A DNA stretch of 64,000 bases from Candidatus Peregrinibacteria bacterium. Its GTDB lineage: Bacteria; Patescibacteriota; Gracilibacteria; UBA1369; JABINC01. Under the pieces are notes generated by a model. That model was not told the origin of the DNA, made no database searches, and worked only from the letters and a program-made list of their open reading frames with translations. Within the stretch, counting starts at the first letter, position 1; each line of letters opens with the position of its first letter. Location of the stretch: assembly GCA_030700255.1 (NCBI GenBank), contig JAUYJN010000029.1, forward strand, positions 6,589-70,588, in the 5' to 3' direction. The position numbers were made by a program, and so were the translations under genes. Positions 6,737 to 30,068 of this stretch are shown here, piece after piece.

Positions 6737-6907
6737 AGATTCAAACGTAACGATTTAAGCCTGTATTCAAGCGTATTATTGACGAAATGTCAAATCCCAT
6801 ACTTTGCAAAAGCCACCTCAAAGCCTAAACTTTTCCTAAAAAAACTCTAAAAAGTTTGACTTGGGTTTGCGATAGTACTAAGGTCTATCCTTGTTAATCA
6901 AATAGCC

Positions 6908-7696: not shown

Positions 7697-7778
7697 CAAT
7701 AAAACTGAGAGGAGCTTCGGCAAAAGTCCAATTTGCTTTTGCGCTTCTACTACGGTTTACCATTGTAACCAAATCATT

Positions 7779-8216: not shown

Positions 8217-8605
8217 TCTTTAGAAACAATGCGAAATCGTATGTCACGAATAGAACAATAATAATTTCATTATGGATAGAGCTGATAAGCAGATACCATC
8301 AAATTTCCCAAGAACTTGATACGAGAGAACAAATTAAACCCGGTGCGGAGCTTTATGGACGCGTACATTCTTTTATGCTGCGTTGGAATAATGTATATGG
8401 AAGTGATGCTCATCTTCATATCGATACTGTCGAGCAGGCTCGCGATGTCATAAATCTTTTCGCGGGCAAAACGCCGGAAAGGCGTCCGCATGACGAGATA
8501 GAAGATGAAAGAGAGAGGATTTTATGAATCCCAAGGTCGCTGATATTCATAAGGCTACTTGCGCCATAGAGTACGAAATCTAATCCCCAGAGATTTGCGC
8601 AGTAT

Positions 8606-11119: not shown

Positions 11120-11947
11120 ATGAGTGAGACAATAGGAGAAGCAATAGGGGATTTCAAAGGCGCAAAAGATCGGGGTATATTCGGTGGGCTTTCATCTGTC
11201 TTAACTGTTTTGACACCAGATCATTGGAAGGGTGCTGCTAGTGGTGTAGCTGATGTCGCTTATAGAACTCCAAAAGCATTGGCATACAGTGGAGCGTATA
11301 AATCGATGAAAGATGAATTTTTCGCACCGGGGCCCAATTATAATGGTGTAATAGATGCAACTAGAGCGGAATTAGCTAATTTCCTCCCGGAAACATGGGG
11401 TGATGTGAAGTCGATTTTTGATACTGAGATTGTGAAAGATATTTTGAAGCCTTTTACTTACGGTGCAGGGCATGCATATTACAAAGTTTTACTTCCATTA
11501 CTTTCTACATTGAGGCATCCAGTACAGCTTACAGGGTACATTAGTGTCGTTGGAGGCCTTATCGGTATGATCCCAGCAATTGCTACTGGGACACTTTCAA
11601 TGGTGACACATTTGATACCTGATTTAATCAGCTTCCCACTTCATGCATTTGGGTCAATAAACAAAACTATTTCAGGGATATTAAGGCGTGGATTTGCAAT
11701 TGCAGAAAGCGTCGGGGCAAATATACCTATTTTTGGTAAGTTGAACAAAGCTACTACTGGTACATTTAGGCGCTTTTTTGCCGCTGCGGAAGCTATGAGT
11801 GAACAAGTGCTAGTTGGAAGTGACTTGGCGGAACGCGGTTTAAATAAAATGTTTGTACCAAGAGGATGGAGGGAGGGTAAGAGATCGGAACATCCATATA
11901 TTGCCAAATGGGGTCAAGGTATAGGTGGCGCATTGGCAACAAGTTAA
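11120..11947 (+). CDS. hypothetical membrane protein (275 aa), first gene of the plus-strand giant-gene operon
   Basis: Hydrophobic segments such as ISVVGGLIGMIPAIATGTLSMVTHLIPDLISF; 24-nt gap to the next gene. Confidence 0.65.
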   Translation: MSETIGEAIGDFKGAKDRGIFGGLSSVLTVLTPDHWKGAASGVADVAYRTPKALAYSGAYKSMKDEFFAPGPNYNGVIDATRAELANFLPETWGDVKSIFDTEIVKDILKPFTYGAGHAYYKVLLPLLSTLRHPVQLTGYISVVGGLIGMIPAIATGTLSMVTHLIPDLISFPLHAFGSINKTISGILRRGFAIAESVGANIPIFGKLNKATTGTFRRFFAAAEAMSEQVLVGSDLAERGLNKMFVPRGWREGKRSEHPYIAKWGQGIGGALATS

Positions 11948-11971: not shown

Positions 11972-14900
11972 ATGGGAAATGAGTTCACACCAAGTTGGAG
12001 AGATGCAAGGTCAATCGGAGAGGCTTTCGTAGGTTCGGGTGTGGATTTCATGAAAGAGGCAATTGCTAAAAAGGCATTTAAACCGTTAGAAATCCTTGAA
12101 GCTTGTCGTGAGTATGGTCCAGAGTTAGCTAGGGACTCATTAACTGATATGGAAAATGAGCTTTATGAACGTGGATTGATATCTATCATAAAAGGAGTAG
12201 CTATGTTGACCGGCTCAAACCCGGATGCAGATGAGAGTGGCGATGTTAATATGGAGGAAGCAAGAAAATTTATACGTGAAATGCGAATGATAAATGGAGA
12301 GATTGCGAATGCGCTTATTTCTGGTGTACGTGCGGATATAATTCGAACGGCAGCGGTGGTTACTAGTAGAAAACAATTTGAAGGGCGTTTTAGAAAATTA
12401 TCAGATGGGGAATCTACAAGCAGTGAGGATGAAAAAGAATTTGAAGATTTCATACATACAAATATTGTTGATATTTCCTTGCCACCCATGAAAAGAGAAG
12501 ATTTTTTAACAGATGAAAAATTCGAAGAGTATGAGAAGGCACGTGTATATATGGAAGCATTTGGAAACTACGCAGTGGATGTTCTCAAGGATTATAGTAA
12601 ACAAAAAGTTACGCTCAAGGATGGTACGAAAACTACAAAGGCTAAGCTTGTGATTAGAGCTTTGGGCAATATGTACGAAGTTACGGAGGGTTGGTTAGGC
12701 CCAGATTTGGGTGAGTTGCATAGAGATGAAGTGACTGAGGAATCCGATCCTGTTATTTTAGCGGAATTCAGCGCTGACATAGCTATTTCTATAACTAAAT
12801 CTGTTAAATCAAAAGAAGGAGCAACTGTTGATGATTTATCTGCAGTTTTTGAAGGGATTCAAAGTGCGTTCATCATTTCGGGATTTGGCATTGGGAATAA
12901 ACCTACTATGTTAAATAGTATAAATGAAATCTTTACACTTGTAACAGCTAATGGTGTAGAGGGTATAGATTTATATGGGAAGGGGAGGAATGCAATTGGA
13001 TTATTGGCTGCTCAAGCAAATGATGAGTTATTAGATTTGGCTGATCACGAAGAACAGGGAGTACTTGGTAAAATGTTCGATGGAGTTGCTATGGTTGCAG
13101 GCTTAACAAAATATTTAATTTTCGATATAGGAATAGGAACTTTATTTAAGGTTGCTGGTGTCCTTGCTAGAGGGGATGGGCTAGAAGGACTTGTTAAAGA
13201 ATTAGGGCAGCCGGTAGTAGATAAAATAAAGCGTTTCTTCGCAAAAGGTTTGTTACTTTCACATTCAACGGATGAAGTTTTGGATGGTCTTGCTGAAAAT
13301 GATTATAGAATTAAGGGTTTTGTTAGCAGGATGTTAACTATGGCTCCCAAACAAGCCGGTAGTGAATTTGATGAAATGTTAAAAGATGAAAGTATAATAA
13401 GTAAAAATGTTTCAGATGTATGGCTCACAGATGGTGGAGTGTTGTCATTAGTGATTAGTGCAGCCAACTTAAAGTCAGATAAAGATTTAAAAGAAATATT
13501 TACAATAGGATTTACATTTTGGGTGCTCGATCTCAAGGGTGAAGATATAACAGAATTAGTCACAGAATATCAAAAAAACCCTTCAGCCTACAATAGGCCT
13601 TTGAATGGTAAGAACCTTGCTCAATCAATGTGGGAAGCGGAGAGTAAATGGGAGTCTAAAGATGGGAGTGACAAAAGTGCATCGTGGGAATCTGATGTAA
13701 GGAATAATGCTACCAGTTTCATGACTGAAAAAGTTGACGAAGAAATGCCATATAGAACAATGTGGCAGACTTTGAAACAAGGTTCTTATGAGTCATTGAT
13801 ATTAGCTCCTTTGCTTATGCAAGGTATACTTGGTGGTGGTAGGGAGGGGCTTAGGGGTTTCGCACGCAACTCATCAGGTCTACTGGTTGCTTTAGATTTG
13901 GTAACTGATCTTAGGAAATATTACTATGACCATATAGAAAGAGAAAAGCTAAAAAACCCTAATTCTGGAGCTGGTCTTTGGGATAGAACGGGTGGCTTCT
14001 TAGTGGAAGAGGGGCCTGAGATTTTGCAAAATAGAGGTCAAGAGTTAATTCACCAATTATGGACTATGCATTTGATAGGTAAAGGTTTACCAGAAAGCAA
14101 ATTTATAGATTTTTTAAAAAAACTTGGCTTTAAAGCTTTAAAGCCTGGAAAATGGATTATAAATAAATTACCACTTAGTACGGGTAAAGCGGTTACTACA
14201 GGGGTCGAATGGGGTGGGGCTAAGATTGCCGGTTTAACAGTAAAGCTGGCTGGCCCAGCTTCAATTTTCTTCGGTGTTAGAATTATTTGGAGAGATGCCA
14301 TATTAGATTTGGAATATGATCCGGTAACAGGGAAATGGGAACCAAGTGGGGAAATCAATCTAACTGGTAGAGGGGCTGCGGCAATAGCAGGGCTTCTTCA
14401 AATCGCATTTGGATGGGGTATGTGTGCAGATTGGGTTGCCTCTAAAGCTGATAGTCATGGTGTGGATTGGGCAGGTAAAGATTCTAAGTTTTATAGAGTT
14501 TCAAAATATCCAAGTAGCAAGTTAGCCATAAAAACACCTGAGAAGGCTGCAGATAAGGCATATAAATCAAGAGGACTTGGAAGGACGAGCTTTGTATTAA
14601 ATGAAGCTAGTGGCGTATTTCTAGGTGAAACTAGTGGTTTTGAAGGGTCTCCTGTGGCAAGGGCGGATAAAATAGATTCTGTAATTATACAGCCAAAGGA
14701 TGGTAATCCAAAGGCAAAATCAGGGAGAGTTATAATCATAGAAGAGGTGACGGTAATGGATGGAGATGGGAGTATAACTGGTAGAGGAGCTAGAGCGGGG
14801 ATAGAGGCTGAACATATAATAATAAGTGACGTAAAAGAGCCTCAGCCAAATTTTATTGACAGAAAAATTCTTGGTCGAAAAAAAGTTACAACATGGGGGG

Positions 14901-17900
14901 TGACGACTACCCATAAATTGGTTCTTTCAGATGGAAGGGTCGTTGATTGTAGCAATATTAATGGACTGGGAACTACAACTGAAGTTGTATATAGCAATCC
15001 CATGGAAGAGGCTGAAAAGTTAAAAAAAGAGATTGCTGAGAGAAAGTTGGAGATAAGTGCTAAAGCTAAAAAAGCTGAGGATGGAAAGTCAAGTGGTACG
15101 GTAGAAGAAAAAAAACCATTAGAAACTAAGGAGTTTAAGAGTCAGTATAGGGAGCAGAAACTAACATACAGCTCAGCCTCTTCAAGGGGTAAAACAACGG
15201 AAACTTTTAAACTAATTGATAAAATAGGAAGCAATACGAATACAAGAATTGTAGAGGTCATAACTGATACTACAAAAACACCAACTGAATATACATTGAA
15301 GTATACTGATCAAAGTGGCAATGTATCCAGAAGGGTTTACAATACAGAGTTACCACCTGCTATTAATAACTCGATAGATAATTTTGAGGTAAGTCGTAAG
15401 GGTGTTTTAGAGATTAATTCTACCTTAGATGCATTGGAAGTGGGTGGATTAAAAGCTGATCATCCAGTAACAAGGTTTTTAGAATTAGATACTCAGGTGA
15501 GTACGGAACTATCTTCTCCTCCTAGAGGTGGAAGGGGCGGTGGCACTAGAGGCGGAGGCGGAGGCGGAGGCGGTATGCCACGTAGCTCATTGGATCCGAT
15601 TGCAGATATAGGTGGATTGACGCCACCACGACGCACGGGAATCCCAATTGGACGTATATCAGTTGGAATGAATAGTGTCGGTGTTTTAGAATCACCAATG
15701 GCTTTTTTCGACTCTCCAAGTGAGATTTTCAAACAAGATATGGAATTGGCGAAGAGATTTATAAGGAAAGTATATGGAGAAATAGTGGATGCATCTGGAA
15801 TTGAAAGATTGATGCAACATTTAGAAAAAAACAAAGGTCCGGTACTGAGTGCATACGCAAAAGAATTTGAGGCCGTAAAGGCTTTGGATTGGGCGGAAGC
15901 TAAGACACGCCTTCGGGCAGCGCAGCTGAGTATGCGAATGGAGACGATATTTAGTATTTTGATGGTTGTAGGGATCATGGTTTCGGCATACGAGGCTAAG
16001 CAATTTAAAAAAAATGCTGCAAGTGATACTGGATTTGAATTCGCAATGGTTATGGCTGGGGCTCTGCCGTCTGGTTTGGGAGGTGCAATGTTAGGAGCTA
16101 GAGCTTTTGCGGGTTTTGGACCTGTTGGTTCAGTTGTTGGAGCCCTTGCCTTTGGTTTTGCCGGTGCATGGCTTGGTGGCGATATGGCGCATAACGCAGC
16201 ATTAACTATGGAACAGCAATTTCCTTACCTTGCACGTGATTTAGGTAAAATATCACAAGTGTTTTTACAAGGGGGTGGGTTGGCAAATCTAGTGATTGAT
16301 GGTATCAAAAAAACAGATGGCACATATGGTTCATTCATAGCTGGTGAAACAGTTGGTTTCGGAGAGAGCAGTCGAACTATAAGTGATGTGACCGGTGGCA
16401 GGGTGCCTTTAGATTGGCATTTGCCGGATTTATCTAAATTAGAGGTTAGTTCTATTCATGTGAATGATGCACCATGGTGGGATAAAAACGATGAATATGG
16501 ATATTATCGAAGGTTAAAGGATTCTGAATTACCAGCAGCTCTAAGAGAAATGTATTCGGCAAAAGCTGACGCAATGAGGCATCCTAGTGATTCTTTTCAT
16601 AAAAAGTATGAAAAGAAAAAAGCTATATATGATATAAAAAAGGCTGAATTTGACACTCTGGAGAAGGCCATAGTAGAAATCGAAGCTGGGATTGACCCTA
16701 CAGAGACAGTCTTTGCAAGGAAATATCTTGAGAGAGAGGCGGTTCTTGCGCAGGGCAGGGAGGTTTTGCAAGATTTCACCAGAGCAAACTTGCGAGCATG
16801 TGAATTTCCTGAACGCGTTGTTGATACAGCAGGTTTAGCATTAGATAGGTTGCCAGAAGGTCCTGAAGGTTGGATGTTAGCTGGTGGAATAAAGAGGGAG
16901 ATTAATTTAATTCATGCAATTGAAGATGAGCTTGTTGACAATAGAGATTATTTTAAATTTGGAGCATTGAAGGAGACTTTGGCTGACGTATATGACGATT
17001 TGGAATCATTTTATGATAAGTATAATAATGTAGCTGATAGGGTTGCGAGTGATTTAGAGGGGGATATAGATAGGCTACGAGAAGCCAACTATGATGCATG
17101 GGATAATCTTGTAGATGTACGTCGTAATGGGGGAGGGAGAGGGTACTTTGATCAGAGATCTGCGTTAAAAGATGCGGAAAAGGCCTATGAAGAATCGGGC
17201 GAGTTACTTGAAAAAGCGAATAAGAATTTAAAAGATGTTTACAATCCTAACTCTGAATATGCAAAAAATCATGAGGAGCTCGGTGAAATGGCTATTGCTA
17301 TAGTAGAGCTAGAAAAACAAATTGATGATGAGCAGAAAGCTACGGTAACTTCCGTTGCAGAAATGAGGGCTAAGTTCAATAAAGCTAAATCTTTGTATGG
17401 TACTTCAGATAAAGGTGAAATACTAAATAATACTGATGACTTATATAAGGAGGCCTTGGTGCGAACTGCTCATACTTATATGCAACAACCGGAACTAAGA
17501 CCTGACAAAATAACATTTACTGAAACGGAAGCAAGGATGCTTATGAGGCTTGAAGATGCTGAAATGGTTGAGGCGAAATATTTCGAAGCGAACCGTGATT
17601 TATGTTTGCTTACGGCGCCATATATTACTAAAGATGAATTCTGGTTTGGATTAAATGACAAAGAAGCTTATAGGGATTCAATTGAGTTACATGCGTTGAA
17701 TACATTTGAAGATAAAGGAACTTTTGACCCAAAGCCAGGATATCAAGCGGAGGATTCATTTATCTATGGTCATAGATCGGGGATAGATGATTATGAAACA
17801 GATGATCTTAAAGTGACTGAGAGAGCTGGTTATAAAATCTTGGATGAAATGACAAAAAATATTCCTGGAGAAGAAAATAGAAAACAAGCGAAGAGGGCGT

Positions 17901-18181
17901 TTTTTGATCAGATTATACTTGCGGAGAGGATTTTCTATGAATCATCTTTATATACTCGATTCGGTGTATTCAAGAATCCTACTCAGTGGCAAGATATTAA
18001 AATTGAACAAGGTAGGCAAGACGATAACGTGGAGCCACCTCAAGATAGGATGTCTACTGCACTTACTGCATTAAATGAGAAATATCAAGAAGTTAAGGAT
18101 GATCCAAGTTGGTTAAATAAAGATGGAGTATTTGATTATGATAGATTGATAGATGAATTTGAGATGACTGATTTTGGTTAA
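11972..18181 (+). CDS. giant protein of unknown function (2069 aa) with several hydrophobic segments, an RGG/poly-Gly tract, a glycine-zipper TM pair and a long helical C-terminus
   Basis: Uninterrupted 6.2-kb ORF; no catalytic motif recognised. Confidence 0.85.
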   Translation: MGNEFTPSWRDARSIGEAFVGSGVDFMKEAIAKKAFKPLEILEACREYGPELARDSLTDMENELYERGLISIIKGVAMLTGSNPDADESGDVNMEEARKFIREMRMINGEIANALISGVRADIIRTAAVVTSRKQFEGRFRKLSDGESTSSEDEKEFEDFIHTNIVDISLPPMKREDFLTDEKFEEYEKARVYMEAFGNYAVDVLKDYSKQKVTLKDGTKTTKAKLVIRALGNMYEVTEGWLGPDLGELHRDEVTEESDPVILAEFSADIAISITKSVKSKEGATVDDLSAVFEGIQSAFIISGFGIGNKPTMLNSINEIFTLVTANGVEGIDLYGKGRNAIGLLAAQANDELLDLADHEEQGVLGKMFDGVAMVAGLTKYLIFDIGIGTLFKVAGVLARGDGLEGLVKELGQPVVDKIKRFFAKGLLLSHSTDEVLDGLAENDYRIKGFVSRMLTMAPKQAGSEFDEMLKDESIISKNVSDVWLTDGGVLSLVISAANLKSDKDLKEIFTIGFTFWVLDLKGEDITELVTEYQKNPSAYNRPLNGKNLAQSMWEAESKWESKDGSDKSASWESDVRNNATSFMTEKVDEEMPYRTMWQTLKQGSYESLILAPLLMQGILGGGREGLRGFARNSSGLLVALDLVTDLRKYYYDHIEREKLKNPNSGAGLWDRTGGFLVEEGPEILQNRGQELIHQLWTMHLIGKGLPESKFIDFLKKLGFKALKPGKWIINKLPLSTGKAVTTGVEWGGAKIAGLTVKLAGPASIFFGVRIIWRDAILDLEYDPVTGKWEPSGEINLTGRGAAAIAGLLQIAFGWGMCADWVASKADSHGVDWAGKDSKFYRVSKYPSSKLAIKTPEKAADKAYKSRGLGRTSFVLNEASGVFLGETSGFEGSPVARADKIDSVIIQPKDGNPKAKSGRVIIIEEVTVMDGDGSITGRGARAGIEAEHIIISDVKEPQPNFIDRKILGRKKVTTWGVTTTHKLVLSDGRVVDCSNINGLGTTTEVVYSNPMEEAEKLKKEIAERKLEISAKAKKAEDGKSSGTVEEKKPLETKEFKSQYREQKLTYSSASSRGKTTETFKLIDKIGSNTNTRIVEVITDTTKTPTEYTLKYTDQSGNVSRRVYNTELPPAINNSIDNFEVSRKGVLEINSTLDALEVGGLKADHPVTRFLELDTQVSTELSSPPRGGRGGGTRGGGGGGGGMPRSSLDPIADIGGLTPPRRTGIPIGRISVGMNSVGVLESPMAFFDSPSEIFKQDMELAKRFIRKVYGEIVDASGIERLMQHLEKNKGPVLSAYAKEFEAVKALDWAEAKTRLRAAQLSMRMETIFSILMVVGIMVSAYEAKQFKKNAASDTGFEFAMVMAGALPSGLGGAMLGARAFAGFGPVGSVVGALAFGFAGAWLGGDMAHNAALTMEQQFPYLARDLGKISQVFLQGGGLANLVIDGIKKTDGTYGSFIAGETVGFGESSRTISDVTGGRVPLDWHLPDLSKLEVSSIHVNDAPWWDKNDEYGYYRRLKDSELPAALREMYSAKADAMRHPSDSFHKKYEKKKAIYDIKKAEFDTLEKAIVEIEAGIDPTETVFARKYLEREAVLAQGREVLQDFTRANLRACEFPERVVDTAGLALDRLPEGPEGWMLAGGIKREINLIHAIEDELVDNRDYFKFGALKETLADVYDDLESFYDKYNNVADRVASDLEGDIDRLREANYDAWDNLVDVRRNGGGRGYFDQRSALKDAEKAYEESGELLEKANKNLKDVYNPNSEYAKNHEELGEMAIAIVELEKQIDDEQKATVTSVAEMRAKFNKAKSLYGTSDKGEILNNTDDLYKEALVRTAHTYMQQPELRPDKITFTETEARMLMRLEDAEMVEAKYFEANRDLCLLTAPYITKDEFWFGLNDKEAYRDSIELHALNTFEDKGTFDPKPGYQAEDSFIYGHRSGIDDYETDDLKVTERAGYKILDEMTKNIPGEENRKQAKRAFFDQIILAERIFYESSLYTRFGVFKNPTQWQDIKIEQGRQDDNVEPPQDRMSTALTALNEKYQEVKDDPSWLNKDGVFDYDRLIDEFEMTDFG
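15524..15574 (+). repeat. GGC/GGA-type simple repeat encoding RGGRGGGTRGGGGGGGG
   Basis: aga ggt gga agg ggc ggt ggc act aga (ggc gga)x3 ggc ggt; a GC-rich island in AT-rich coding sequence. Confidence 0.9.
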
Positions 18182-18218: not shown

Positions 18219-18479
18219 ATGAACGATCTACAAAACATCAATAAGGAATTTACACGGCTATTAAGTACTTCTGTAATGAGTGCTGACGATAAAGAAAGTA
18301 TCCTCAAGAAGATGGAGGGTAACGCTATGGATCAGGAAGAATTTGCAAATTTGTATCTGTATTTAGTGTCAGAGGAGGAGGTGAGAAAAGCTAATTTACC
18401 TAATGCCATGATTAAATTAGGTCATTTGCAAGGGAAAATGATCGCATCAGAGGTAAAGCAATTTAGAAATAGAAATTAA
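18219..18479 (+). CDS. small helical hypothetical protein (86 aa)
   Basis: ORF packed between the 2069-aa gene (37-nt gap) and the SLT gene (11-nt gap). Confidence 0.5.
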   Translation: MNDLQNINKEFTRLLSTSVMSADDKESILKKMEGNAMDQEEFANLYLYLVSEEEVRKANLPNAMIKLGHLQGKMIASEVKQFRNRN

Positions 18480-18490
18480 GAATAATATAA

Positions 18491-21400
18491 ATGAGATCAA
18501 AAAATGAACAAGCTGAATCGGGGCAAGGCATAGATAATACACCTATTGATACTATAGTGCCTGCGAATGGCCATGTCGATATGGCGGTAGATCCAATGGC
18601 GGAACTAGAAGCTCTTGATCGTGATGTAAAGAAATCTGATGAAAGGGTTGCGGCATGGTATGATTTTCTTGTGCCTGACAATTCAGCACTTCCAAAATCA
18701 ATTGAGAAGAAAATAGATGCAGCTTTACCACCTTCGATAGTGTTGGAAAATATATATGCCCCAGAGATGTTAGCAGACAAAGATGCTTTGAAAGCTTCCT
18801 CCGTAGGTTTGAAGGACGCTGCTAGGGTAAGCCAAAAATCAAGTTATTCGCAGTTTGAGACTTATAAGAACCCGCAGACAATTATTGAGAGACTTGGGCA
18901 GGAGCGATTATCTTTTATTAAATATTTAAGTGAGACATCTGGTATACCTGCCGCAGTAATTGCCTCAATTATGGTGATAGAATCAGGCGGTAATCCTAAC
19001 CTAATGTCATATGGAGGTGCCGCTGGTAGGTTTCAACATGTCAAAGCAACGGCACGTTCTATGAAAGTTGGTGGTGGAAGAGAGGTAGTAACGTATAGAG
19101 CGGGGGAGGTTGATGACAAAAGGAAGGTTGTGCAAGTAGGATCCAAAGATTATACGATAGGCAGGGAGGGTGATTATAAAGATTCAGAGGGGAAGTATTA
19201 TCCGGTAGAAGATGGGCGGTTTGGATTTGAGCATTGGGCAGGGACGGTGAATATACTTTATGGATGTTATAAAGCCGCAGGGGACTCATGGTTAGAAGCT
19301 CCTCGACATTACCATGGTGACGAAGGCCCTGTTGAAAGATATATTGCACAATTTGCATATGTTGTACAAGGAGCATCAGATATTAATTGGAGCTTACTTC
19401 CGGCATACCAGCCTAAGCATGAAGTTCACGAAGTTAAAGAACCAATTAATTTATATGATCTTTTGTATTCAGATGAAGAATATTCTATATTAGATTTCGT
19501 AGATGATTCGGATCCAAATGCCTCACTTAATAACCAATTAAGTTTATTCAGAGTGCCATTAGGGGCTTTAAGTTCTGATTTGAAAATTCCAGAAGATAAT
19601 GTGAATAAATATTTTTTATCCAGAAAGTTAGAAAAACGTTTGATTTTATCAGATCATTGGGTTGGTTACGACGATTCATCTTTTTTTGAAATAATAGTTG
19701 GTAACGAAAAAGGTCCAACAGGTTTTTACCATCAGGCTAAAAATGGTGTTGGTGCGACTGATGTATATACGAAAAATTCAGATGGCACTGTAACAATTAA
19801 CCGCGACGCATTTAGATATGATCAGGCAGATATAGATGCATGGAGGGGAGTTGGTGACTTCTACGATGAAGAAACTTCAGTTGATCCGGAGTTCACATGG
19901 CAAAGACGTGGAGTGAATCATCCACCAACAATCGATGACCTTCGACGTTCGGGAATATCTTTTCGAGAGATTATTCAGTTAAATCCTGATGTGTTTGGCG
20001 TAGGACAGGGCGGGGTAACCACTATGGATCCGGCTATAAAGCGATATTTGCAAACAACATATTTAAGACCCGGATATTTATTGGAAATTAAAGTTGGTAA
20101 AGCCAAAGGGACAAAAGGTGGGACGGAAAAGATGGAGCAAGCAAAGAAAGGTCCAACGGAGGGAGAGATATTAGCCGATCGAAATACAGATAGTGAGGTA
20201 AAGGGCTACATAGCAAAATCAATGTTTAAGAAAAAGAAAGAAGGAGATCGTGTGTATCATATGATAAGACTTGCATCAGAATTGAATTCATTCGTAATGA
20301 AATACCATATCGATTCAGCGACGAAAACTCTTTTGGAAGAAACTGTTGAATATTGTCGGAACCTTTCTAGCGATCAGGATTTACTTACAACTTTAGCTAG
20401 TAATCCATCATTAATGAGATCTTGGTTAGATCTTTTTTTATACAAAAATGTCGAAGAGATGATGAGTAGAAAAAGTGAGCTTACTGTTGATGAGGTTGAA
20501 TTTTTTATGATGACCGTTAAGGTTTACCAAGGGCTTATAGGTAATTACAAGTCAGCATTCAAATTACTTCCAAGTTTTTGGAAACAATATAAGCAGATGA
20601 TAGCTTGGCATGGTGAGCTTGTGAAAATTGAGGGAGATAAACAAGGTACGCAAGCGAAAATTGATGAAGCTAAAGCTGCTAAAAGGTATGCTGATATAGC
20701 TGCAATAAAATTACGTGAAAGTTATCGAGAGGCAAATGAGATAGTTGTAGTTCAAACCCTACTTAATGATGAAGATGTGAAAAAAGAAATTGGCTTATTG
20801 GAAACAAGAGAATTTGCAAATCAGGCACTTGTTAAAATACAAGAAGAACTGAAGAAATTCTCAGCTATTGGTCTATCAGCTTCTGTGAAGGAAATAGTAG
20901 AAGTGGGTGATGGGAGTCCAACAGGCGAAATCAGTATTCCCATTGAAATCACCGATCAAACATCAAAAACTGGTAAATCGATGATTGCAAAAGCAACTTT
21001 CAATAAAAAGAATGGGTTGAAGAAATTTGATTTGTACTCCATGGTTCCATCTGAAGGGTTTGACTTAGATTCAATGTATACGGAGCGGTACGATGAAGGG
21101 TCAAATGCACAATTGGAACGTATTGATGTTGAAAATATAAATGACATGTTATTTGGGTATTTGATGTATAGATTGGTGCATACTCCTGAGAAGAAAAAAC
21201 AATCTACGGAGAGTGGTTTAAGGGAAGGTATGGTGGAGTATGGAGGTAGTACAAAATATAAAATATTTACAACAGAATATAATTCAAGTGTGTACGTTGG
21301 TCTTATTAACCCCTCAACAATTACTACATTTAATTCTGAAGAATATGTAGGGGCATTCTATATTAATGTCTATGAATCTCTTGATGATGATGCGGAGATG

Positions 21401-21622
21401 GATGGTAATTTTATCACTTTGACAACAAAAAGATGGGAAGTAGTTGATGGCAAAATGGTAAGAGCTTCAGACGCTGAAGGGAAGCGATTGCCTGAAATTG
21501 TATTAGGGCGATTTAAATCGGTTGATGATTTAATAATGGCAATTAATAGTGCGAATATAATTGATGGATATTCCACTGAAAATAAAAAAGATTTTATAAA
21601 AAGGCCAATCGTAACTAAATAG
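18491..21622 (+). CDS. SLT-domain lytic transglycosylase fused to about 750 aa of unknown function (1043 aa), with no signal peptide
   Basis: GIPAAVIASIMVIESGGNPNLMSYGGAAGRFQH fits the family-1 SLT E-S ... G-(L/R)-(M/F)-Q pattern; catalytic Glu codon at 18980-18982. Confidence 0.8.
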   Translation: MRSKNEQAESGQGIDNTPIDTIVPANGHVDMAVDPMAELEALDRDVKKSDERVAAWYDFLVPDNSALPKSIEKKIDAALPPSIVLENIYAPEMLADKDALKASSVGLKDAARVSQKSSYSQFETYKNPQTIIERLGQERLSFIKYLSETSGIPAAVIASIMVIESGGNPNLMSYGGAAGRFQHVKATARSMKVGGGREVVTYRAGEVDDKRKVVQVGSKDYTIGREGDYKDSEGKYYPVEDGRFGFEHWAGTVNILYGCYKAAGDSWLEAPRHYHGDEGPVERYIAQFAYVVQGASDINWSLLPAYQPKHEVHEVKEPINLYDLLYSDEEYSILDFVDDSDPNASLNNQLSLFRVPLGALSSDLKIPEDNVNKYFLSRKLEKRLILSDHWVGYDDSSFFEIIVGNEKGPTGFYHQAKNGVGATDVYTKNSDGTVTINRDAFRYDQADIDAWRGVGDFYDEETSVDPEFTWQRRGVNHPPTIDDLRRSGISFREIIQLNPDVFGVGQGGVTTMDPAIKRYLQTTYLRPGYLLEIKVGKAKGTKGGTEKMEQAKKGPTEGEILADRNTDSEVKGYIAKSMFKKKKEGDRVYHMIRLASELNSFVMKYHIDSATKTLLEETVEYCRNLSSDQDLLTTLASNPSLMRSWLDLFLYKNVEEMMSRKSELTVDEVEFFMMTVKVYQGLIGNYKSAFKLLPSFWKQYKQMIAWHGELVKIEGDKQGTQAKIDEAKAAKRYADIAAIKLRESYREANEIVVVQTLLNDEDVKKEIGLLETREFANQALVKIQEELKKFSAIGLSASVKEIVEVGDGSPTGEISIPIEITDQTSKTGKSMIAKATFNKKNGLKKFDLYSMVPSEGFDLDSMYTERYDEGSNAQLERIDVENINDMLFGYLMYRLVHTPEKKKQSTESGLREGMVEYGGSTKYKIFTTEYNSSVYVGLINPSTITTFNSEEYVGAFYINVYESLDDDAEMDGNFITLTTKRWEVVDGKMVRASDAEGKRLPEIVLGRFKSVDDLIMAINSANIIDGYSTENKKDFIKRPIVTK

Positions 21623-21654
21623 AATTGGGTATCTCAAGGTATCTAACTATATAG

Positions 21655-22254
21655 TTAGCCTCTACCCTTATCCCCATCTCTGTCTTCATCAGCTGGTGGT
21701 TTTGGCTTTTCTTTCTTTTTGCCTTTCTTTGGATCTTCTTTCTTTGGATCTTCTTTCTTCAAAACATCACCCGGATAAAAACCATCTAAAAGATTCACAA
21801 CTGTACGTGCTTCATCTACATTCCTAATTTGTACATCAAGAGTATCAGATTTTGGGAAAAGACCATTCCACCAGTGCATAAATGCTTCTAGAGAAATTGA
21901 CAACGCATCCATCGGATTATTAAGGTTTATTTTAGGATCAATAGCTCCATTTATATCAAGTCTTCGCAGCTTTTGAATAACAGCCATGATATTTTCAGGG
22001 GTTGCTGAGTTCAAAAACAAAGCAATTTGTATGGTATTCGCATCTGTGATACGTGTTGTATCAATTGTTATATTTGGGACTTGATCAGTGAGTAAAGCTA
22101 GTCTATCTTCATTTAAATGAAGATCATTTCTAAATGCTTCTAACTCCATGATAGGGTCGATAGTCATGTCTACCGAATTATCAGAATTGTTTTGACCTTC
22201 TAACTCAGATGCCAACTCCATCCCTGTTTTGAATTGTTTATCTCCTTCTGACAT
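21655..22254 (-). CDS. hypothetical protein (199 aa) with a conserved N-terminal motif and a Lys-rich tail
   Basis: N-terminal VDMTIDPIMELEAFRNDLHLNEDRLA; C-terminal KKEDPKKEDPKKGKKKEKPKPP. Confidence 0.6.
   Translation of the reverse strand: MSEGDKQFKTGMELASELEGQNNSDNSVDMTIDPIMELEAFRNDLHLNEDRLALLTDQVPNITIDTTRITDANTIQIALFLNSATPENIMAVIQKLRRLDINGAIDPKINLNNPMDALSISLEAFMHWWNGLFPKSDTLDVQIRNVDEARTVVNLLDGFYPGDVLKKEDPKKEDPKKGKKKEKPKPPADEDRDGDKGRG
21727..21756 (-). repeat. perfect 2 x 15-bp tandem repeat (encodes KKEDP KKEDP)
   Basis: ctttggatcttcttt repeated head-to-tail on the plus strand. Confidence 0.9.
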
Positions 22255-22269: not shown

Positions 22270-25200
22270 TTAAGGTAATGTATTCAAAGTAGTAATCAGC
22301 CGTGAACCAATAAGATTAGAATTCAAGTTGCGTACAAAAGCATTTTCCATATTTGTATTGAGTGTTTCTAATAGCACATCTCCAGCACCGGCAGTTCCCA
22401 AAGTATTCACTACACTTGGAGCAGTATTTGTTGCAATGAACTGATCAATATAAATTGCCGCCTCGCTTTTAAAATTATTGACACCACGTCGTGGATCAGG
22501 GAAAGCAAGAGCTCCCGCTAGTCCCGGTGGGTAAAGTCCGACAGCATCAAGCGTCCTCCAAACTATGTCATAATGTTCGAAATCAAATACTCTAGCTAAA
22601 GATCCTCGTAATAGTGGCAATTCAAGGCTACCCCAACTGCCTTTGGTTGCATCATATTTACCAGCACTATCTAGGGGTAGGCTAGGTGGTGTTCCAGCTA
22701 TTAACCTTGTGTCTAAAGTCCCCCAATTATGATATTGGAAACCAAATGGCTGCCATTTGATTTTTGAAAGTAATGGGGCTGTAACGAGATCTGTATGTTG
22801 TAGCCACATGCGTTGCACATCATATACTGTATTAACAAAATCAAATCTCATTCGATCATTAGTATTGGCATTTATATATTCATCAAATGTTGGCCATTCA
22901 TAAGAGCCTTGCCCTAATGTTACGTCACCTCCGGAAGTTCGGATCGTATCACGACTAGGTTGCTGAGATTCATCGACAGTAATTGATCTTTCAAGGGACT
23001 GTACATCAGCTGTATCAATTTGGGCAAACATTCCCCCCATCTTGGCTTTATTAAAATGAGTTGTCATTTTCTCTACATAATAATGTAGGAATTTTTGTGC
23101 ATTTGCTTTATCAGTCGGGTTTCCATTGGTTAAAACATCCATAGCAGTACGACCGGTTCTATCTTTTTTTAATGCTTGTTTTTGAAATAAGTCCATCAAA
23201 TCTCTAAATGCTTCAGGTTCAAAATCATAAAATCTCTCCATACGTGATTTAAAATAGCTGTATTCAGCAATAAATTCATCTGGGTATCCCAAGGTTTCAA
23301 GTTCAAGTGCAAAATTATCAAATGTGCTGTTGTCGACCTCCTTATTAAGTGCGATGTCTCTTTGTACCTTTTCTTCAAATTTCGCTAATTCAATCAGCAC
23401 ATCATTTAGATTACTTAGTTGTGATTGACTCATATCTCCGCTTTCTATTTGTTGGATAAGTAAATCGCGACGTGTAGTAAGAAGATTTGTCCATTCCTCT
23501 TCACTTACAGAACCGCCATTTTTGAAATCTTTGAAGTATTTCCATGGGAATTTAAGTGGGAATAAATTTTTGAACCATCTTTCATTCATCTCACTCGCAA
23601 GACTTATCATGTTGTCAAACCTAGTATTTACAACATCAGTAAGTACATCTCTCCATGCATTCTCTTTTTCTGAAGTCGTATAACCTTTAACATCAAATGT
23701 GAATACTAACTCAGAATTAGCTCCGGCCCATCCGCTAGATGTGGAAGCTACCTTATCTCTAGATGCCGCATCACGTACTTCAATACCTTGTTGAGGTGTA
23801 CCTCCTGTAACATCAGTGAATTCACCTTTGAATGTAACAGTTCTACTAGTTCCACGTGTCACAATACCATTAATTGAAGTAGCTGTACCATCTTTGATTT
23901 GTGACCAGTTTTCTATTTCAATATCATCGGTTGCAAATGGAAAATGATAAGAACGCAATATCCATGATTTGAAATTATCCTTTTCTATTTTTTCAGTTAA
24001 TTTGGTTAGAGAACCAGCTGTATCAAGAGCTGCCTTCTCTTTATCCCAATATTTATCATTTTGATAAAATCTAATACCAAAGGTAGCCTTATCCAAAGGC
24101 CCATATGGTTTTATATATATATTATGGAAACTAGTAGGGATTGTTAGGGTATGTTTCATATCATCAGCATTAATCTCAATCGGCTTCGGCTCAACCTTAA
24201 ATCCTGGTACCATCCATTTCATCTCTGATTGATTCCATTCAAGTGTCTTTGAAGCTTGGTGATAGAAATCCTCCATAAGCTTCTTGTCCTCAGCATTGTC
24301 TTTTATCTGAGGCATAGTTTTGAGAGCAGTATCACGTACAAGCCCTTTTGCAAATCCCATGATTTCTTCAGGATTATTTTCACCAAAGTGGAAAATCTTT
24401 TCAGATCCATCTACATTATAAAATACAAAACCATCTATTCGCTCTCCAGGCTTGTAATCTTGTACCTTTGTACCATATAAAAATCTTACTTTTGTCATTA
24501 CTCCACCTGGAAGTGTGACGATATTTTCAGTTTTATTCGGCATTCCTATATCAAACCCATAGTCTGCACTAGGCAGGATTTCCCTCAAATAATTAACTAA
24601 TCTATATTTATTACCACCTATCCAATTACCTATATATCCATGCAATCTATCAATAACTTTACCTCCAAGTGAAGTAGCTCCATCAAATCCATGTCCAAAC
24701 ATATTTGCTAAATAATAAAAAGGTTGTTTCTGTGCACGCGAATCATTATTTACAGAAACCAAAAGTTTAGTTACCTCAAGCATAGTCATCCCAGCTAAAG
24801 CGACAATGCCTTTATCATTCTCATATTCATCGATAAATTTACCATATCTTCTGTCAAACATAGCCATGGCTTCATAAAACGCCTGATCATTATCCATTCC
24901 CTCTATAAGATTAGGATTCAGAACCCCAGGAATATTTAATTTTTTTGGTTTCGCACTAGACTTTTTAACTTGCTGGTATCTGTCCCACAATTCCATAAAA
25001 GGAATATCCTTGGTTACACCAATAAGTATCTCAAAATTCTCAATTTCTTTTTCATTTGTAGCATAATCAGAGAAAATTCTTCTTAGATTATCATCTAATC
25101 TATGTGCATCCATACTTGTTAATTTTTCTACTTCTTCAATTGGACTTTTTCCGGTTAAGGCTTTGACCCATAAATCACCTCCATACACTCCATAAATTCC

Positions 25201-26883
25201 AAGACCTCCATATATCATAGCCTTTCTAAAGGCTCCCATTTTCGGATTTTTACTTGTAAGAACCCATCCAAGTACGCCAATACCTGCAACAAGTGCGGCA
25301 ATACCTTTGTTTGGGTCTTTTGCAAAGGCAGTTTCAACACCATATCTTATCCTTCTAAGTTTTCCTTTTATTTGACGTCCAATATGCTGCCTTGGTCGCA
25401 TCTCTCGTCTTTCATCAACTGCTCCAAGTACAGATTCACCAAGTTGCATTTGAATACGTACTTTTTCTTGTAAAGTTTTAACTGTAAGTGCTATGTGTGC
25501 CAACTCATCGGCAGCTTGCATCAATTCAGCTTCAGTTGGCATGTTCTGCGCATGACCTTTTAAAACTTCATTTTGCATGAATTTAAGGTCAAATTTATTT
25601 GGATCATAGTTGGCTGCATTAAGCAAAGCTTGAGTAGTTAACCCTGTTCCATGGAAATTTTTATCTTGTAATTGCACAATAAGTCTTTGTTCTTGCGCCG
25701 AAAGGTTCTCAGATTGCACTGCCAATTGAAAAACACGCCTATCTATTGCTGCTAATCTGTCAGTAGATAGTCTAGTTTTATCTACAGGCCCACCATTATC
25801 AAAATATGGCTTTAATTCTTGTAAATATGTAAGTGCATCTTTAAGTTTTTGTTCGTCAGGTGTTAGAAATGCTTGAGCTTTGAGGCCTTCAAGTTCTCTG
25901 AATAGCCCTGATGTCATCCCACGAGGTGAATTAAAAAGAAGGCTATACACTTCAATCATATGTTCATCATTCGATGTATACGCTGTGATATTTGTTTCTA
26001 GAGTAGTCTTTCGTACAATAATGGCATCTAGCTCAGTTTGAATCGTTGGTTTGTCGGAAGCCTCTGCAGCGGTTAATTTGTCCTTTAATTCTTGTTCGCT
26101 TTTTAATACTGAACCCATCTCTGCCGTTGCATCACTTTTAGCTTGTTTTTTAGCTGTTAAAGCTTGGTATTCAGCTTTAAGAGTATCAAAAGTAGCTTGG
26201 CCATTGGTTGGATCTTTATCTAATAAGTAATCTTTGAGATCTTTTTTCTTTGTACCTCTAGATTCTTCAGTTCTATCATCATTTGCAGTAAAAGGACCAA
26301 CGATTTGTAGATCTCTAAGTGCGAAAAGTAATTCTTCTTTTTCCTTTTGTTCTAGTTCCGATCCAAGGAATTTTCCAGTAAGTGCCCCTGAGAATTCATC
26401 TTCAAGTTCTTTGAAAACTAGATTTAAGTCTTCCGTCATACGGCTACCATTCTGAATAAGCTTCAAGGTTCGAAGTAAAAGATTTTGGTAAGTGCTTAAC
26501 TCTGCTTCTCGTGACAGTTGTCTAACGAGGAATTGAGCAACATCTTTAGGATTCATAGCTTGCTTTGCAGAAAGCTTTTCATTGCCGGCCCAAGTAAGCA
26601 AGCCGTTATAGCTATAAGAAAAGTTTTTAGAACCAATTGATTCCCCATATTTGTCAGCAGCAGATTCTATAGAGCCACGATCTTGACCGTCCATATGAGA
26701 AATAGCTCTTCCACCTGGACTGTACGGAGTATGGTCATCATGTACTTCATTACCTGTGCCTGCAGCAAACCAAACCCTCTTCCCAAACTCTCTCTCAAAT
26801 TCAAAAGAGCCGGTATGAGATAGGCGGCCTGATCTATCGAAACCGTCTTCGAACGCCGAATTTTGGAATATTTTTGGTGTCAT
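22270..26883 (-). CDS. giant protein of unknown function (1537 aa) with a central glycine-zipper TM pair
   Basis: Uninterrupted 4.6-kb ORF; TM pair GIAALVAGIGVLGWVLTS / AMIYGGLGIYGVYGGDLWV at residues 527-573; helical N-terminal about 500 aa. Confidence 0.85.
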   Translation of the reverse strand: MTPKIFQNSAFEDGFDRSGRLSHTGSFEFEREFGKRVWFAAGTGNEVHDDHTPYSPGGRAISHMDGQDRGSIESAADKYGESIGSKNFSYSYNGLLTWAGNEKLSAKQAMNPKDVAQFLVRQLSREAELSTYQNLLLRTLKLIQNGSRMTEDLNLVFKELEDEFSGALTGKFLGSELEQKEKEELLFALRDLQIVGPFTANDDRTEESRGTKKKDLKDYLLDKDPTNGQATFDTLKAEYQALTAKKQAKSDATAEMGSVLKSEQELKDKLTAAEASDKPTIQTELDAIIVRKTTLETNITAYTSNDEHMIEVYSLLFNSPRGMTSGLFRELEGLKAQAFLTPDEQKLKDALTYLQELKPYFDNGGPVDKTRLSTDRLAAIDRRVFQLAVQSENLSAQEQRLIVQLQDKNFHGTGLTTQALLNAANYDPNKFDLKFMQNEVLKGHAQNMPTEAELMQAADELAHIALTVKTLQEKVRIQMQLGESVLGAVDERREMRPRQHIGRQIKGKLRRIRYGVETAFAKDPNKGIAALVAGIGVLGWVLTSKNPKMGAFRKAMIYGGLGIYGVYGGDLWVKALTGKSPIEEVEKLTSMDAHRLDDNLRRIFSDYATNEKEIENFEILIGVTKDIPFMELWDRYQQVKKSSAKPKKLNIPGVLNPNLIEGMDNDQAFYEAMAMFDRRYGKFIDEYENDKGIVALAGMTMLEVTKLLVSVNNDSRAQKQPFYYLANMFGHGFDGATSLGGKVIDRLHGYIGNWIGGNKYRLVNYLREILPSADYGFDIGMPNKTENIVTLPGGVMTKVRFLYGTKVQDYKPGERIDGFVFYNVDGSEKIFHFGENNPEEIMGFAKGLVRDTALKTMPQIKDNAEDKKLMEDFYHQASKTLEWNQSEMKWMVPGFKVEPKPIEINADDMKHTLTIPTSFHNIYIKPYGPLDKATFGIRFYQNDKYWDKEKAALDTAGSLTKLTEKIEKDNFKSWILRSYHFPFATDDIEIENWSQIKDGTATSINGIVTRGTSRTVTFKGEFTDVTGGTPQQGIEVRDAASRDKVASTSSGWAGANSELVFTFDVKGYTTSEKENAWRDVLTDVVNTRFDNMISLASEMNERWFKNLFPLKFPWKYFKDFKNGGSVSEEEWTNLLTTRRDLLIQQIESGDMSQSQLSNLNDVLIELAKFEEKVQRDIALNKEVDNSTFDNFALELETLGYPDEFIAEYSYFKSRMERFYDFEPEAFRDLMDLFQKQALKKDRTGRTAMDVLTNGNPTDKANAQKFLHYYVEKMTTHFNKAKMGGMFAQIDTADVQSLERSITVDESQQPSRDTIRTSGGDVTLGQGSYEWPTFDEYINANTNDRMRFDFVNTVYDVQRMWLQHTDLVTAPLLSKIKWQPFGFQYHNWGTLDTRLIAGTPPSLPLDSAGKYDATKGSWGSLELPLLRGSLARVFDFEHYDIVWRTLDAVGLYPPGLAGALAFPDPRRGVNNFKSEAAIYIDQFIATNTAPSVVNTLGTAGAGDVLLETLNTNMENAFVRNLNSNLIGSRLITTLNTLP

Positions 26884-26959: not shown

Positions 26960-27083
26960 ATATTGGTTAATATACTAAGGGTGATTTACAGGCGAGTTCG
27001 ATTTGGGTAGGCTACCTTCGTTGCAAATCTAAGTGAATTCATGCAAACTACGATTTAAATCAATAAAAATTAATTCAAAACAT

Positions 27084-28382
27084 ATGGCAAATGAAGTGAC
27101 TATTAAGAAAATCAAGGATTCTCAGGCTGAAATTAATGTAAAAGTAAGCGTTGCTGAGTTTAAGAAATACAAAGAAAAGTCTCTGAAAGAGCTTGGTAGA
27201 AACGTGAAGATCAAAGGTTTTCGCGCAGGGCATGTACCGCATGATGTACTTGAAAAACATGTTAGCAAAGAAGGTATCCTCGGTCTTGCAATTGATATGG
27301 CGCTTACTGCTTCATACCGTGAAGCTATTATTGAGCACAAAGTTGAGGTGATGAGTCGGCCAAATGTGAAAATCGAATCGGAAGATCCACTTGAATATAC
27401 AGTTACTGTAGCGATCAAGCCCGATGCGAAGGTAAAAGATTACAAGAAGATCAAAGTAGATATAAAAGAACAAAAAGTAAGCAAAAAAGAAATCGAGGAA
27501 ACTGTGCAAGATCTTCTAAAAGGGAAGGGGGAATGGCACGACACGGATAGAAATGCGAAATCCGGGGATAGGGTAGAGGTTGATTTTCAGGGGTATGATG
27601 GGACCAAAGTCGCAGAAGGTAAGGAAGTGCCAAATACTAAGAGTACAAACCATCCATTGATTCTTGGTTCAAATTCATTTGTTCCGGGTTTTGAAGATGC
27701 GATTCAAGGCATGAAAGTAGGGGATACAAAGGAATTTACTGTTACTTTCCCAAAAGATTATCACGTAGATGATTTCAAAAATAAAAAAGTTACATTCAAA
27801 GCGAACCTCAAACGTTTGGAAGAGCAAAAACTTCCGGAGTACAATGATGAATTTATAAAAGAAGCTACAAATGGCTTAAAAACCAATAAAAAAGATTTTG
27901 AGATTTACGTAGAAGAAGTGCTTTCAGATAAGAAAAAAGATGATGCCAAAGGCAAGGCCGAAGGTGAGCTTATCGAGAAAATCCTAAAAGCGACTGAGGT
28001 AGAAATCGCTCCACAGCTCATCGAACAAGAGACTGAGGTGATATTTAATGATTACAAACGTCAGATAGAATCAAAGGGTATAACTTTTGAGAAACATCTT
28101 GAGATGTCAAAGGCTGATCCGGAAGCTATGAAAAAAGAAATGGCAAAAGAGGCGGGGAAACGAGTAAAAATGCGCTTCGCACTTGATTACATCATAGAAC
28201 AAGAGAAGTTTGACGTGACAGAAAAAGAAGTGGAAAAGGAAATAGAAATGATCACATCACGTTATCCTGCAGGAGAGCATTCAAAAATAGCGGAACACTA
28301 CAAAAAAGACTCTGATAACTTTATCAGACTCAAAAACATGCTAGTTGTTGGAAAGGTATTTGAAATGTACTTTGCTAAGTAG
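27084..28382 (+). CDS. tig: trigger factor
   Basis: N-terminal ribosome-binding motif KGFRAGHVP, central FKBP-like region and C-terminal helical arm; I place the start at ATG 27084 rather than the track's GTG at 27033. Confidence 0.92.
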   Translation: MANEVTIKKIKDSQAEINVKVSVAEFKKYKEKSLKELGRNVKIKGFRAGHVPHDVLEKHVSKEGILGLAIDMALTASYREAIIEHKVEVMSRPNVKIESEDPLEYTVTVAIKPDAKVKDYKKIKVDIKEQKVSKKEIEETVQDLLKGKGEWHDTDRNAKSGDRVEVDFQGYDGTKVAEGKEVPNTKSTNHPLILGSNSFVPGFEDAIQGMKVGDTKEFTVTFPKDYHVDDFKNKKVTFKANLKRLEEQKLPEYNDEFIKEATNGLKTNKKDFEIYVEEVLSDKKKDDAKGKAEGELIEKILKATEVEIAPQLIEQETEVIFNDYKRQIESKGITFEKHLEMSKADPEAMKKEMAKEAGKRVKMRFALDYIIEQEKFDVTEKEVEKEIEMITSRYPAGEHSKIAEHYKKDSDNFIRLKNMLVVGKVFEMYFAK

Positions 28383-29698: not shown

Positions 29699-30068
29699 GA
29701 TCAACGGATTTTTTCTATGAGAAAATTTTGGAGTGACGGAAGTGTGGTGGGATTGATCGTTTGCAGAGAAGTTTTTAGCCGCTTTTTTACGATTTTTCGC
29801 AGCATTGGTATGAAATATTTCATATATATATAGCTATAACATCGCCAATAAGTAAGTTAGTTTTTTTTCTGTATGGCATATTATTCACTACGACACACTT
29901 TAAGGGTAAGCTAATACTCACTATGTAATATTTGGGTTTTTGTGCAAGTTAAAGTTGTAGTTTTTGGCTTAAAGCTAGCCTTTTTTGGCATTTAAGGCTT
30001 GACCCAAAATGGTGAGTGAATGGTATTATTTTTTTGTAAAAACAGCTTTATTTTTTAATCAAAAAACC

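Follow-up and report, generated by a model that had tools for sequence, protein, structure and literature searches.

Two adjacent genes on a chromosomal stretch of Candidatus Peregrinibacteria bacterium (contig JAUYJN010000029.1), a candidate phyla radiation (CPR) member, encode proteins that share a short peptide at nearly the same distance from their N-termini. The first protein, 1043 amino acids long, carries the lytic transglycosylase domain SLT; the second, of 199 amino acids, carries a conserved module that we call 'WWN'. The similarity between the two leaders is real, and the peptide is probably functional. We tentatively favor, at less than even confidence, the view that it is a docking peptide specific to this genome, by which both soluble proteins would bind one partner encoded in the surrounding gene cluster. 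Throughout, the window refers to the whole 64-kb stretch of DNA that was analyzed.

A common peptide in two acidic leaders

The two copies read VDMAVDPMAELEALDRDVKKSDERVA (residues 29–54 of the SLT protein) and VDMTIDPIMELEAFRNDLHLNEDRLA (residues 28–53 of the 199-aa protein). Their coordinates (Table 1) and translations are exactly as given in the preliminary description of the window, which also placed the motif within one residue of the same distance from the initiator methionine, in agreement with the offsets of 29 and 28. The pattern common to both, VDMxxDPxxELEA...D...R.A, is likewise real, with the correction that the identities number 12 in 26 residues (9/13 in the core) and that residues 1–27 of the two proteins are not similar: by BLASTP, by the all-against-all comparison and by shuffling, the similarity is limited to residues ~24–58 of both. 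Copy 1 is laid out as a short hydrophobic-acidic stretch followed by a putative helix capped by D-P. Both leaders are acidic, the SLT protein having 13 and the 199-aa protein 14 Asp and Glu residues among residues 1–60, next to four to six Lys and Arg; over residues 6–21 the net charge is -4 and -1, respectively. The annotated starts of the SLT and 199-aa genes lie 11 and 15 nt past the upstream stops. An alternative start at the motif's own methionine in both genes was considered and set aside; no Shine-Dalgarno sequence precedes either start.

Pairwise BLASTP aligns residues 25–58 with residues 24–57 at 31.2 bits (13/34 identities, E 4e-5). When all 43 window proteins are compared with one another, the pair has an E-value of 0.004 against a chance ceiling of ~27 bits and is the fourth-best match, the three better ones being genuine paralogues. 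Smith-Waterman alignment of the N-terminal 80 residues scores 68; 20,000 composition-preserving shuffles average 24.8 (standard deviation 4.6) and reach at most 54. This translates to a Gumbel p-value of ~3e-6, or ~0.003 once corrected for the 903 N-terminal pairs of the window, among which the motif pair ranks second, after one true paralogue pair. It is also the only pair that stands out (z 7.6) when leaders are compared with cluster proteins.

The match is kept at the protein level. The two motif-coding stretches are 56% identical in nucleotides, their longest common word is 7 nt, and the same codon is used at only 2 of the 11 identical non-Met residues, compared to the 5.0 that local codon usage predicts. 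With synonymous sites saturated, the motif is not a recent copy, which excludes recent duplication or gene conversion and upholds the earlier statement that the DNA is diverged. An invertible segment or shufflon, with inverted repeats 3.4 kb apart swapping protein bodies, was discarded in view of the same 7-nt common word. That most of the core has stayed identical despite saturated synonymous sites, next to dissimilar residues 1–27, implies that in both genes the peptide has been under purifying selection.

In a Kyte-Doolittle scan neither protein shows a transmembrane (TM) segment or a hydrophobic N-terminus. The maximal 19-residue means of the SLT and 199-aa proteins are 1.45 and 1.20, respectively; within the N-terminal 80 residues they are 0.86 and 1.20, compared to 1.88 for the TM-anchored paralogue P0009. 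Both leaders lack a hydrophobic h-region and an RR motif, and so do not qualify as Sec or Tat signals, as the preliminary description had also read them. AlphaFold2 (AF2) gives no confident structure for residues 1–123 of the SLT protein (pLDDT 25–30 over residues 1–120), and the SLT and 199-aa models are poor overall, with pLDDT of 49.6 and 41, respectively. A helix is drawn at residues 36–60 of the SLT protein, with pLDDT below 50, and the single-sequence model of the 199-aa protein has low-confidence helices at residues 34–46 and 49–57; neither N-terminus is confident, and in both proteins the helix starts at the Pro. Seven positions are hydrophobic in both copies; on a helix they fall on a single face (resultant 0.70, p 0.006), and the hydrophobic moments of the two copies point alike, at 355 and 353 degrees.

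The motif in orthologues and related loci

A sensitive search among 1.84 billion representatives recovered seven homologues of the SLT protein, at 30–37% identity. With eight family members including the query, the cluster is rare, and the orthologues compared below are distant (at most 37% identity), nothing closer having been found in the databases searched. When the 199-aa protein, the 1043-aa protein or the 199-family alignment served as query in word-indexed homologue searches, only the query itself came back. Two metagenome contig scans, for the SLT and 1537-aa families, and one viral contig scan yielded no matches, and a scan of GTDB genomes yielded a single locus, L007, from Candidatus Peregrinibacteria bacterium. 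This and the other related loci are referred to as L003, L004, L006, L007 and L008.

A hidden Markov model (HMM) built from the two motif sequences, a check proposed in the preliminary description, finds no match in any open reading frame (ORF) of five related loci or elsewhere in the window, and an HMM of the other genomes' SLT leaders retrieves neither window leader. Aligned by hhalign, the SLT N-terminal region and the 199 family are related with a probability of 0.1%. The motif was not found in any of the 772-, 275-, 2069-, 86- and 1537-aa proteins of the cluster, nor do the SLT leaders of L003 and L007 show similarity to any other cluster protein. Loci L004 and L006 have no 199-family gene; in the L003 and L007 orthologues, the stretch collinear with the 199-aa leader is an internal interdomain linker, ~200 residues in. 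The preliminary description took the motif for a leader of fixed position that marks the substrates of a dedicated system, and these results do not support that view; absence from orthologues, which it had named as evidence to the contrary, is largely what is found in relatives of at most 37% identity. As far as distant orthologues show, the motif does not appear to be a property of the two families.

Scored without gaps among 30,590 positions, the SLT leader of L004 comes 6th (at residue 41) and that of L007 8th (at residue 35), a weak hint that the motif type may persist there, and in a MAFFT alignment a hydrophobic-acidic-x-x-hydrophobic-acidic core lines up in all SLT leaders. A resemblance seen by eye to the SLT leaders of other genomes (for example MDFDVDYEGDLEDFRDQF) was set aside, having no HMM support and a weak ungapped score. 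The N-terminal ~100 residues are acidic in every SLT orthologue. In one clade, P0003-5, residues ~50–90 carry a conserved FGYDP[AE]TGDMNDSxYEPYxAED[YF]G..SED inside the variable acidic region; this element is absent from the window protein. Acidic leaders with clade-specific conserved short motifs suggest that the SLT N-terminal region is functional but fast-evolving.

The two proteins and the cluster beside tig

Judged by its sequence, the 1043-aa protein is a bona fide SLT-domain protein. Residues 143–193 match Pfam SLT (PF01464) with 23.9 bits against a cut-off of 21.3, and the family profile matches lytic transglycosylase C (9vi7, E 2e-5) and E. coli MltC (4c5f, E 1e-3) in the PDB. Residues E164, S173, G176, A177, G179 and Q182 are invariant in all seven aligned family members, all of which keep the catalytic Glu-Ser and G-x-x-Q motifs. 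A PHROG match, 'lytic tail protein', covers the SLT region only, and a Foldseek search of the PDB with the AF2 model gave no match below E 0.1. The protein thus resembles family 1 lytic transglycosylases (PF01464; MltC/EmtA) in passing the Pfam threshold and in its catalytic Glu-Ser and G-x-x-Q. Unlike MltC/EmtA, it holds the SLT domain inside 1043 residues, of which ~750 are of unknown fold, and its leader is acidic and replaces a signal peptide or lipobox.

Residues 60–163 of the 199-aa protein align with residues 248–350 of a 494-aa protein in L003 (BLASTP, E 6e-10) and residues 72–163 with residues 286–375 of a 541-aa protein in L007 (BLASTP, E 1e-11); the 'WWN' module is coded by nt 21766–22077. 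By these alignments the window protein corresponds only to the C-terminal module of its 494-, 541- and 551-aa orthologues (residues ~205–375), and their ~200-residue N-terminal domain is missing from it. Homology of its leader to the interdomain linker of the orthologues was considered and rejected: the two are collinear by MAFFT and tblastn, but composition-adjusted BLASTP is not significant.

Paralogues of both module types occur in L008, which was obtained from the sample that also gave L003 and may be the adjoining contig. One of its genes is for a 548-aa SLT paralogue that has a TM helix at the N-terminus (1444–3090, + strand), another for a 357-aa protein (7792–8865, - strand) whose N-terminus is signal-peptide-like and which ends in a 199-type module (hhalign probability 91%, E 1e-6); a second, more degenerate copy of the module seems visible by eye in the middle of the latter. 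With Sec-type N-termini found on both, the two module types likely act outside the membrane. The extracytoplasmic role argued for in the preliminary description therefore becomes likelier, whereas a family-wide leader signal stays unsupported. The existence of Sec-targeted paralogues also suggests that the absence of such a signal from the main-cluster copies is meaningful.

Table 1. Coordinates of the two motif copies, the cluster genes and further features (window positions unless a locus is named)
Feature	Coordinates	Strand	Description
Motif copy 1	18575–18652	+	In the SLT protein; translation, BLASTP, shuffles
Motif copy 2	22096–22173	-	In the 199-aa protein; translation, BLASTP, codon comparison
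1043-aa SLT protein	18491–21622	+	Acidic N-terminal ~120 residues, SLT domain, ~750-residue C-terminal region of unknown fold
199-aa protein	21655–22254	-	Leader 1–59, conserved 'WWN' module ~60–163, Lys/Glu/Asp-rich tail
772-aa protein	8606–10924	-	N-terminal hydrophobic stretch KLALLAAGMLGLGATVWG; divergent from 275-aa gene
275-aa protein	11120–11947	+	Conserved, one hydrophobic segment; first gene of + operon
2069-aa giant protein	11972–18181	+	Conserved Gly/Ala-rich hydrophobic segments
86-aa small helical protein	18219–18479	+	Directly upstream of SLT gene; six-member alignment
1537-aa giant protein	22270–26883	-	Conserved hydrophobic hairpin; upstream of 199-aa gene, same operon
Trigger factor, tig	27033–28382	+	Pfam Trigger_N/FKBP_C/Trigger_C; conserved neighbor marking the cluster boundary
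Ice-binding-like protein	54655–56151	-	
Sortase	54050–54664	-	
SLH protein	48107–50341	-	
SLH protein	57781–60087	-	
P0003-5 SLT leader motif	L007 9599–10100; L003 6945–7300		Seen in one clade of SLT orthologues

The window is bacterial (CPR) chromosome of ~38% GC, with tig, rplS, rnhB, infB, clpB, ruvB and a gene for an AddA-type helicase. The cluster contains two convergent transcription units, 275-2069-86-1043 (+) and 1537-199 (-), so that the SLT and 199-aa genes sit at the ends of different operons, as stated in the preliminary description. A syntenic cluster is conserved in six loci. The common order is an operon of genes for proteins of 220–331, 2069–2568 and 80–90 aa followed by the SLT protein (~1050–1190 aa), on which converge, beside the SLT gene, either nothing or a gene for a 199–551-aa protein and, beyond it, one for a ~1450–1540-aa protein; then comes tig. 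The tig gene adjoins the cluster in the window, in L003, in L006 and on the JGI contig of P0004, and L007 has at this position a 436-aa ORF, matched by length only. Being chromosomal, and syntenic beside tig in five loci, the cluster is vertically inherited.

Apart from SLT, the cluster proteins match nothing in Pfam, PHROGs, NCBIfam or PADLOC, and PDB sequence and profile searches with the 2069-, 1537- and 86-aa families returned noise only. The hydrophobic segments of the 2069-, 1537- and 275-aa proteins are probably membrane-embedded; the same scan finds no hydrophobic segments in the SLT, 199- and 86-aa proteins. The 275-aa protein is 39.7% identical to a 317-aa protein of L008 (E 3e-60), and the 772-aa protein has an orthologue there, adjoining the 275-like gene (39.7% over 763 aa, E 4e-169). 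Visual inspection suggests a TM anchor in the stretch KLALLAAGMLGLGATVWG of the 772-aa protein; no segment above 1.6 came out of the 19-residue Kyte-Doolittle scan. A ~330-residue domain is common to the 2069-aa protein (residues 228–554; 12653–13633, +) and the 772-aa protein (residues 159–488; 9461–10450, -), with 25–28% identity (E 2e-15) and no Pfam or PDB match. With this common domain and the L008 orthologue, the 772-aa gene is part of the same system. In every locus an 86-aa-type gene immediately precedes the SLT gene, lying within 20 nt of it or overlapping, and its product matches nothing in Pfam, the PDB, NCBIfam or chaperone families; we infer from its place that it could be an adaptor or chaperone. 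The 1537-aa family has a conserved extreme N-terminus, NSAFExG..SG..S.SGSFEFxREFGxRVWF (window 26790–26883, -; L003 16150–16247, -), unrelated to the VDMxxDPxxELEA motif.

As to the surroundings, a protein with an ice-binding-like domain is encoded beside a sortase, and of two SLH surface proteins one has an M23 peptidase domain. Together these speak for an envelope of the monoderm type that bears an S-layer. At the window edge, ~35 kb from the cluster and beside peptidoglycan-binding and M23/SLH proteins, a 732-aa ATPase (61747–63945, -) gives matches to HerA/DUF87 and to the TrwB family of type IV coupling proteins; no other secretion-type gene was seen in the window. Beside the 772-aa gene (6101–8216) are three small proteins with signal-peptide-like N-termini, two of which have a Cys after the hydrophobic stretch, as in lipoproteins, and one of which has a weak match to an HExxH metallohydrolase-lipoprotein family (TIGR04549, E 6e-4); similarly placed proteins with signals are encoded in L008. 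Further to the left of the cluster lie an AbiEii-type toxin gene (2809–3672, +) and a Fic-domain gene (4655–5719, -), and in L006 an AbiEii gene (18491–19078, -) is found between the cluster and tig. The ORFs 121–1257 (+) and 30009–30965 (+), ~29 kb apart, are paralogues (40.6% over 377 columns, E 1e-94); the latter has an HNH endonuclease motif, and the pair may be copies of a mobile or selfish element. Ribosomal protein L19 (31105–31761, +) has 218 residues, the Pfam domain covering residues 32–140 and a long C-terminal extension following; its L007 counterpart has 197 residues.

Possible roles of the peptide

We propose that the motif is a short linear interaction peptide: a hydrophobic-acidic stretch (VDMx[VI]D) and a Pro-capped helix of ~25 residues with one hydrophobic stripe, preceded by an acidic, disordered N-terminus. 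The SLT enzyme and the 199-aa 'WWN'-module protein, both devoid of TM helices, would use this peptide to dock on the same site of one partner, a member of the conserved, membrane-associated complex of giant proteins encoded around the two genes. The 86-aa protein is the obvious candidate for the partner, others being the cytoplasmic parts of the 2069- and 1537-aa membrane proteins, and docking would serve recruitment, assembly or hand-over for export. The 199-aa protein, having lost its N-terminal domain of ~200 residues here, would reach the complex via the SLT-type peptide; the loss suggests that the peptide may replace the recruitment role of that domain. With the motif undetected in related genomes, a docking peptide specific to this genome is likelier than a general export signal. 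Several observations weigh against such a docking peptide. The motif is seen in one genome only, and homologue, contig and family searches found no closely related genome. The SLT leaders of L003 and L007 show no similarity to their 494- and 541-aa neighbors (z < 0). On the modeled helix, identical residues are scattered all around and not confined to one face, and the size of the hydrophobic moment is unexceptional (p 0.16 and 0.49).

A chance likeness of two acidic, Leu/Ala-rich N-terminal regions would need neither a partner nor a common origin, and we consider it very improbable. The match is short (26–34 residues, 31 bits), was found by open-ended reading of 64 kb and is not reproduced in orthologues, and by our estimate a whole-proteome all-against-all comparison would give a few 31-bit matches. 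However, none of the 20,000 shuffles reaches the observed score, the p-value withstands correction for all N-terminal pairs, the window-level E-value is composition-adjusted and its noise ceiling lies below the score of the pair; moreover, the two genes are neighbors, and the motif offsets differ by no more than one residue. Less easily dismissed, while still rather unlikely, is a relic of an old partial duplication, in which the 5' end, from the start to about codon 58, was copied between the genes with no common partner involved. The copy would have replaced the N-terminal domain in the 199-aa gene, and the helix would have been kept for each protein's own structure. The similarity does end at residues 58 and 57 with the same start offset, as if a whole 5' end had been copied; the orthologues' N-terminal domain is missing from the 199-aa protein, composition-adjusted BLASTP demonstrates no homology between its leader and their linker, and the motif was not found in other genomes. 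An unconstrained copy should, however, decay throughout, and the core stays identical at 9/13 positions with only 2 of 11 codons the same, against 5 expected, and with no similarity left in residues 1–27. Such an origin is compatible with a common function: it accounts for the position of the motif, not for its retention.

A dedicated secretion or loading signal, read by a non-Sec export or injection machine that the cluster encodes, we regard as distinctly unlikely. The SLT domain must reach peptidoglycan, and the protein that bears it has neither a Sec signal nor a TM helix, while paralogues of both module types have Sec-type N-termini. The leader is N-terminal, acidic and without confident AF2 structure, the giant cluster proteins have probably membrane-embedded segments, and the ranks of the L004 and L007 leaders in the ungapped scan add their weak hint. 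Against this, neither HMM nor profile-profile comparison detects the motif in orthologues, the 199 family is absent from two genomes and has ~200 extra N-terminal residues in three others, no other cluster protein has the motif, and the cluster holds no ATPase or known secretion component, the T4CP-like (coupling protein) ATPase being ~35 kb off. A bolder proposition, for which we see little probability, is that the cluster is an undescribed, CPR-specific envelope-spanning machine for export or attack on a host, which would know its substrates by fast-evolving acidic leaders. If so, the VDMxxDPxxELEA peptide would be its first visible recognition signal, captured by a second substrate after domain loss.

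Among known systems, the payloads of extracellular contractile injection systems (eCIS; PVC/Afp, Pvc15-dependent) offer the first parallel. They are otherwise unrelated proteins encoded beside a large machine, with hydrophilic, disordered N-termini of ~50 residues in place of a Sec signal (PMC11297309, PMC11495950), and the first ~50 residues of the leaders described here are hydrophilic and disordered in the same sense. Loading signals of eCIS lack sequence conservation and carry a slight positive charge over residues 6–21 (PMC11297309), whereas the leaders here have a defined motif and negative net charge over these residues. Searches with Pfam, PHROGs, NCBIfam and PADLOC found no eCIS core genes (sheath, tube, baseplate, AAA ATPase) in the cluster.

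Effectors of type III secretion systems (T3SS) have chaperone-binding domains in which the N-terminal ~50–100 residues wrap, as a strand plus helix, around a small chaperone encoded next to them. Here, too, a strand-like stretch and a helix come after a disordered N-terminus and a small gene lies directly upstream; unlike in T3SS, the 86-aa protein matches no chaperone family and the window has no T3SS genes. No T3SS is known from CPR bacteria. Internal proteins of phages (T4 IPs, phiKZ inner-body proteins) carry capsid-targeting sequences or propeptides, short N-terminal peptides that direct otherwise unrelated proteins into one assembly. The window pair, with its short N-terminal peptide on two otherwise unrelated proteins, is similar, and large internal or ejection proteins bearing SLT domains are phage-typical; unlike in phages, genes for a capsid, portal, terminase or protease are missing from the cluster, the window as a whole shows no capsid, portal or maturation protease genes, and the viral contig scan was empty. 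Type VII secretion systems (T7SS) export WXG100 and LXG substrates with small helical Lap adaptors, helical N-terminal targeting regions, a YxxxD/E motif and the ATPase EssC. The monoderm-type envelope, the Sec-independent proteins, the helical N-terminal region and the small helical candidate partner are reminiscent of T7SS. In contrast to T7SS substrates, the leaders have no WXG motif (the LXG motif was not looked for there); no cluster protein has a WXG100 or LXG Pfam match, and no EssC/FtsK/SpoIIIE-type ATPase is encoded in the cluster. By these comparisons the leader appears to resemble most closely eCIS signals, T3SS chaperone-binding regions and phage capsid-targeting sequences; its negative charge, its defined motif and the lack of apparatus genes set it outside the eCIS and phage classes, membership of the T3SS class appears unlikely from the genes in the window, and it fits neither Sec/Tat nor T7SS.

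The motif is at present a feature of one genome, and its value is that of a lead and not of a defined signal; the cluster, uncharacterized as it is, holds more interest. CPR bacteria are believed to live in attachment to other cells, and to our knowledge it is largely unknown how they move wall-degrading enzymes across their own envelope. If both soluble products of the cluster dock via one peptide, that peptide would provide an experimental handle on their partner and on the function of the giant proteins.

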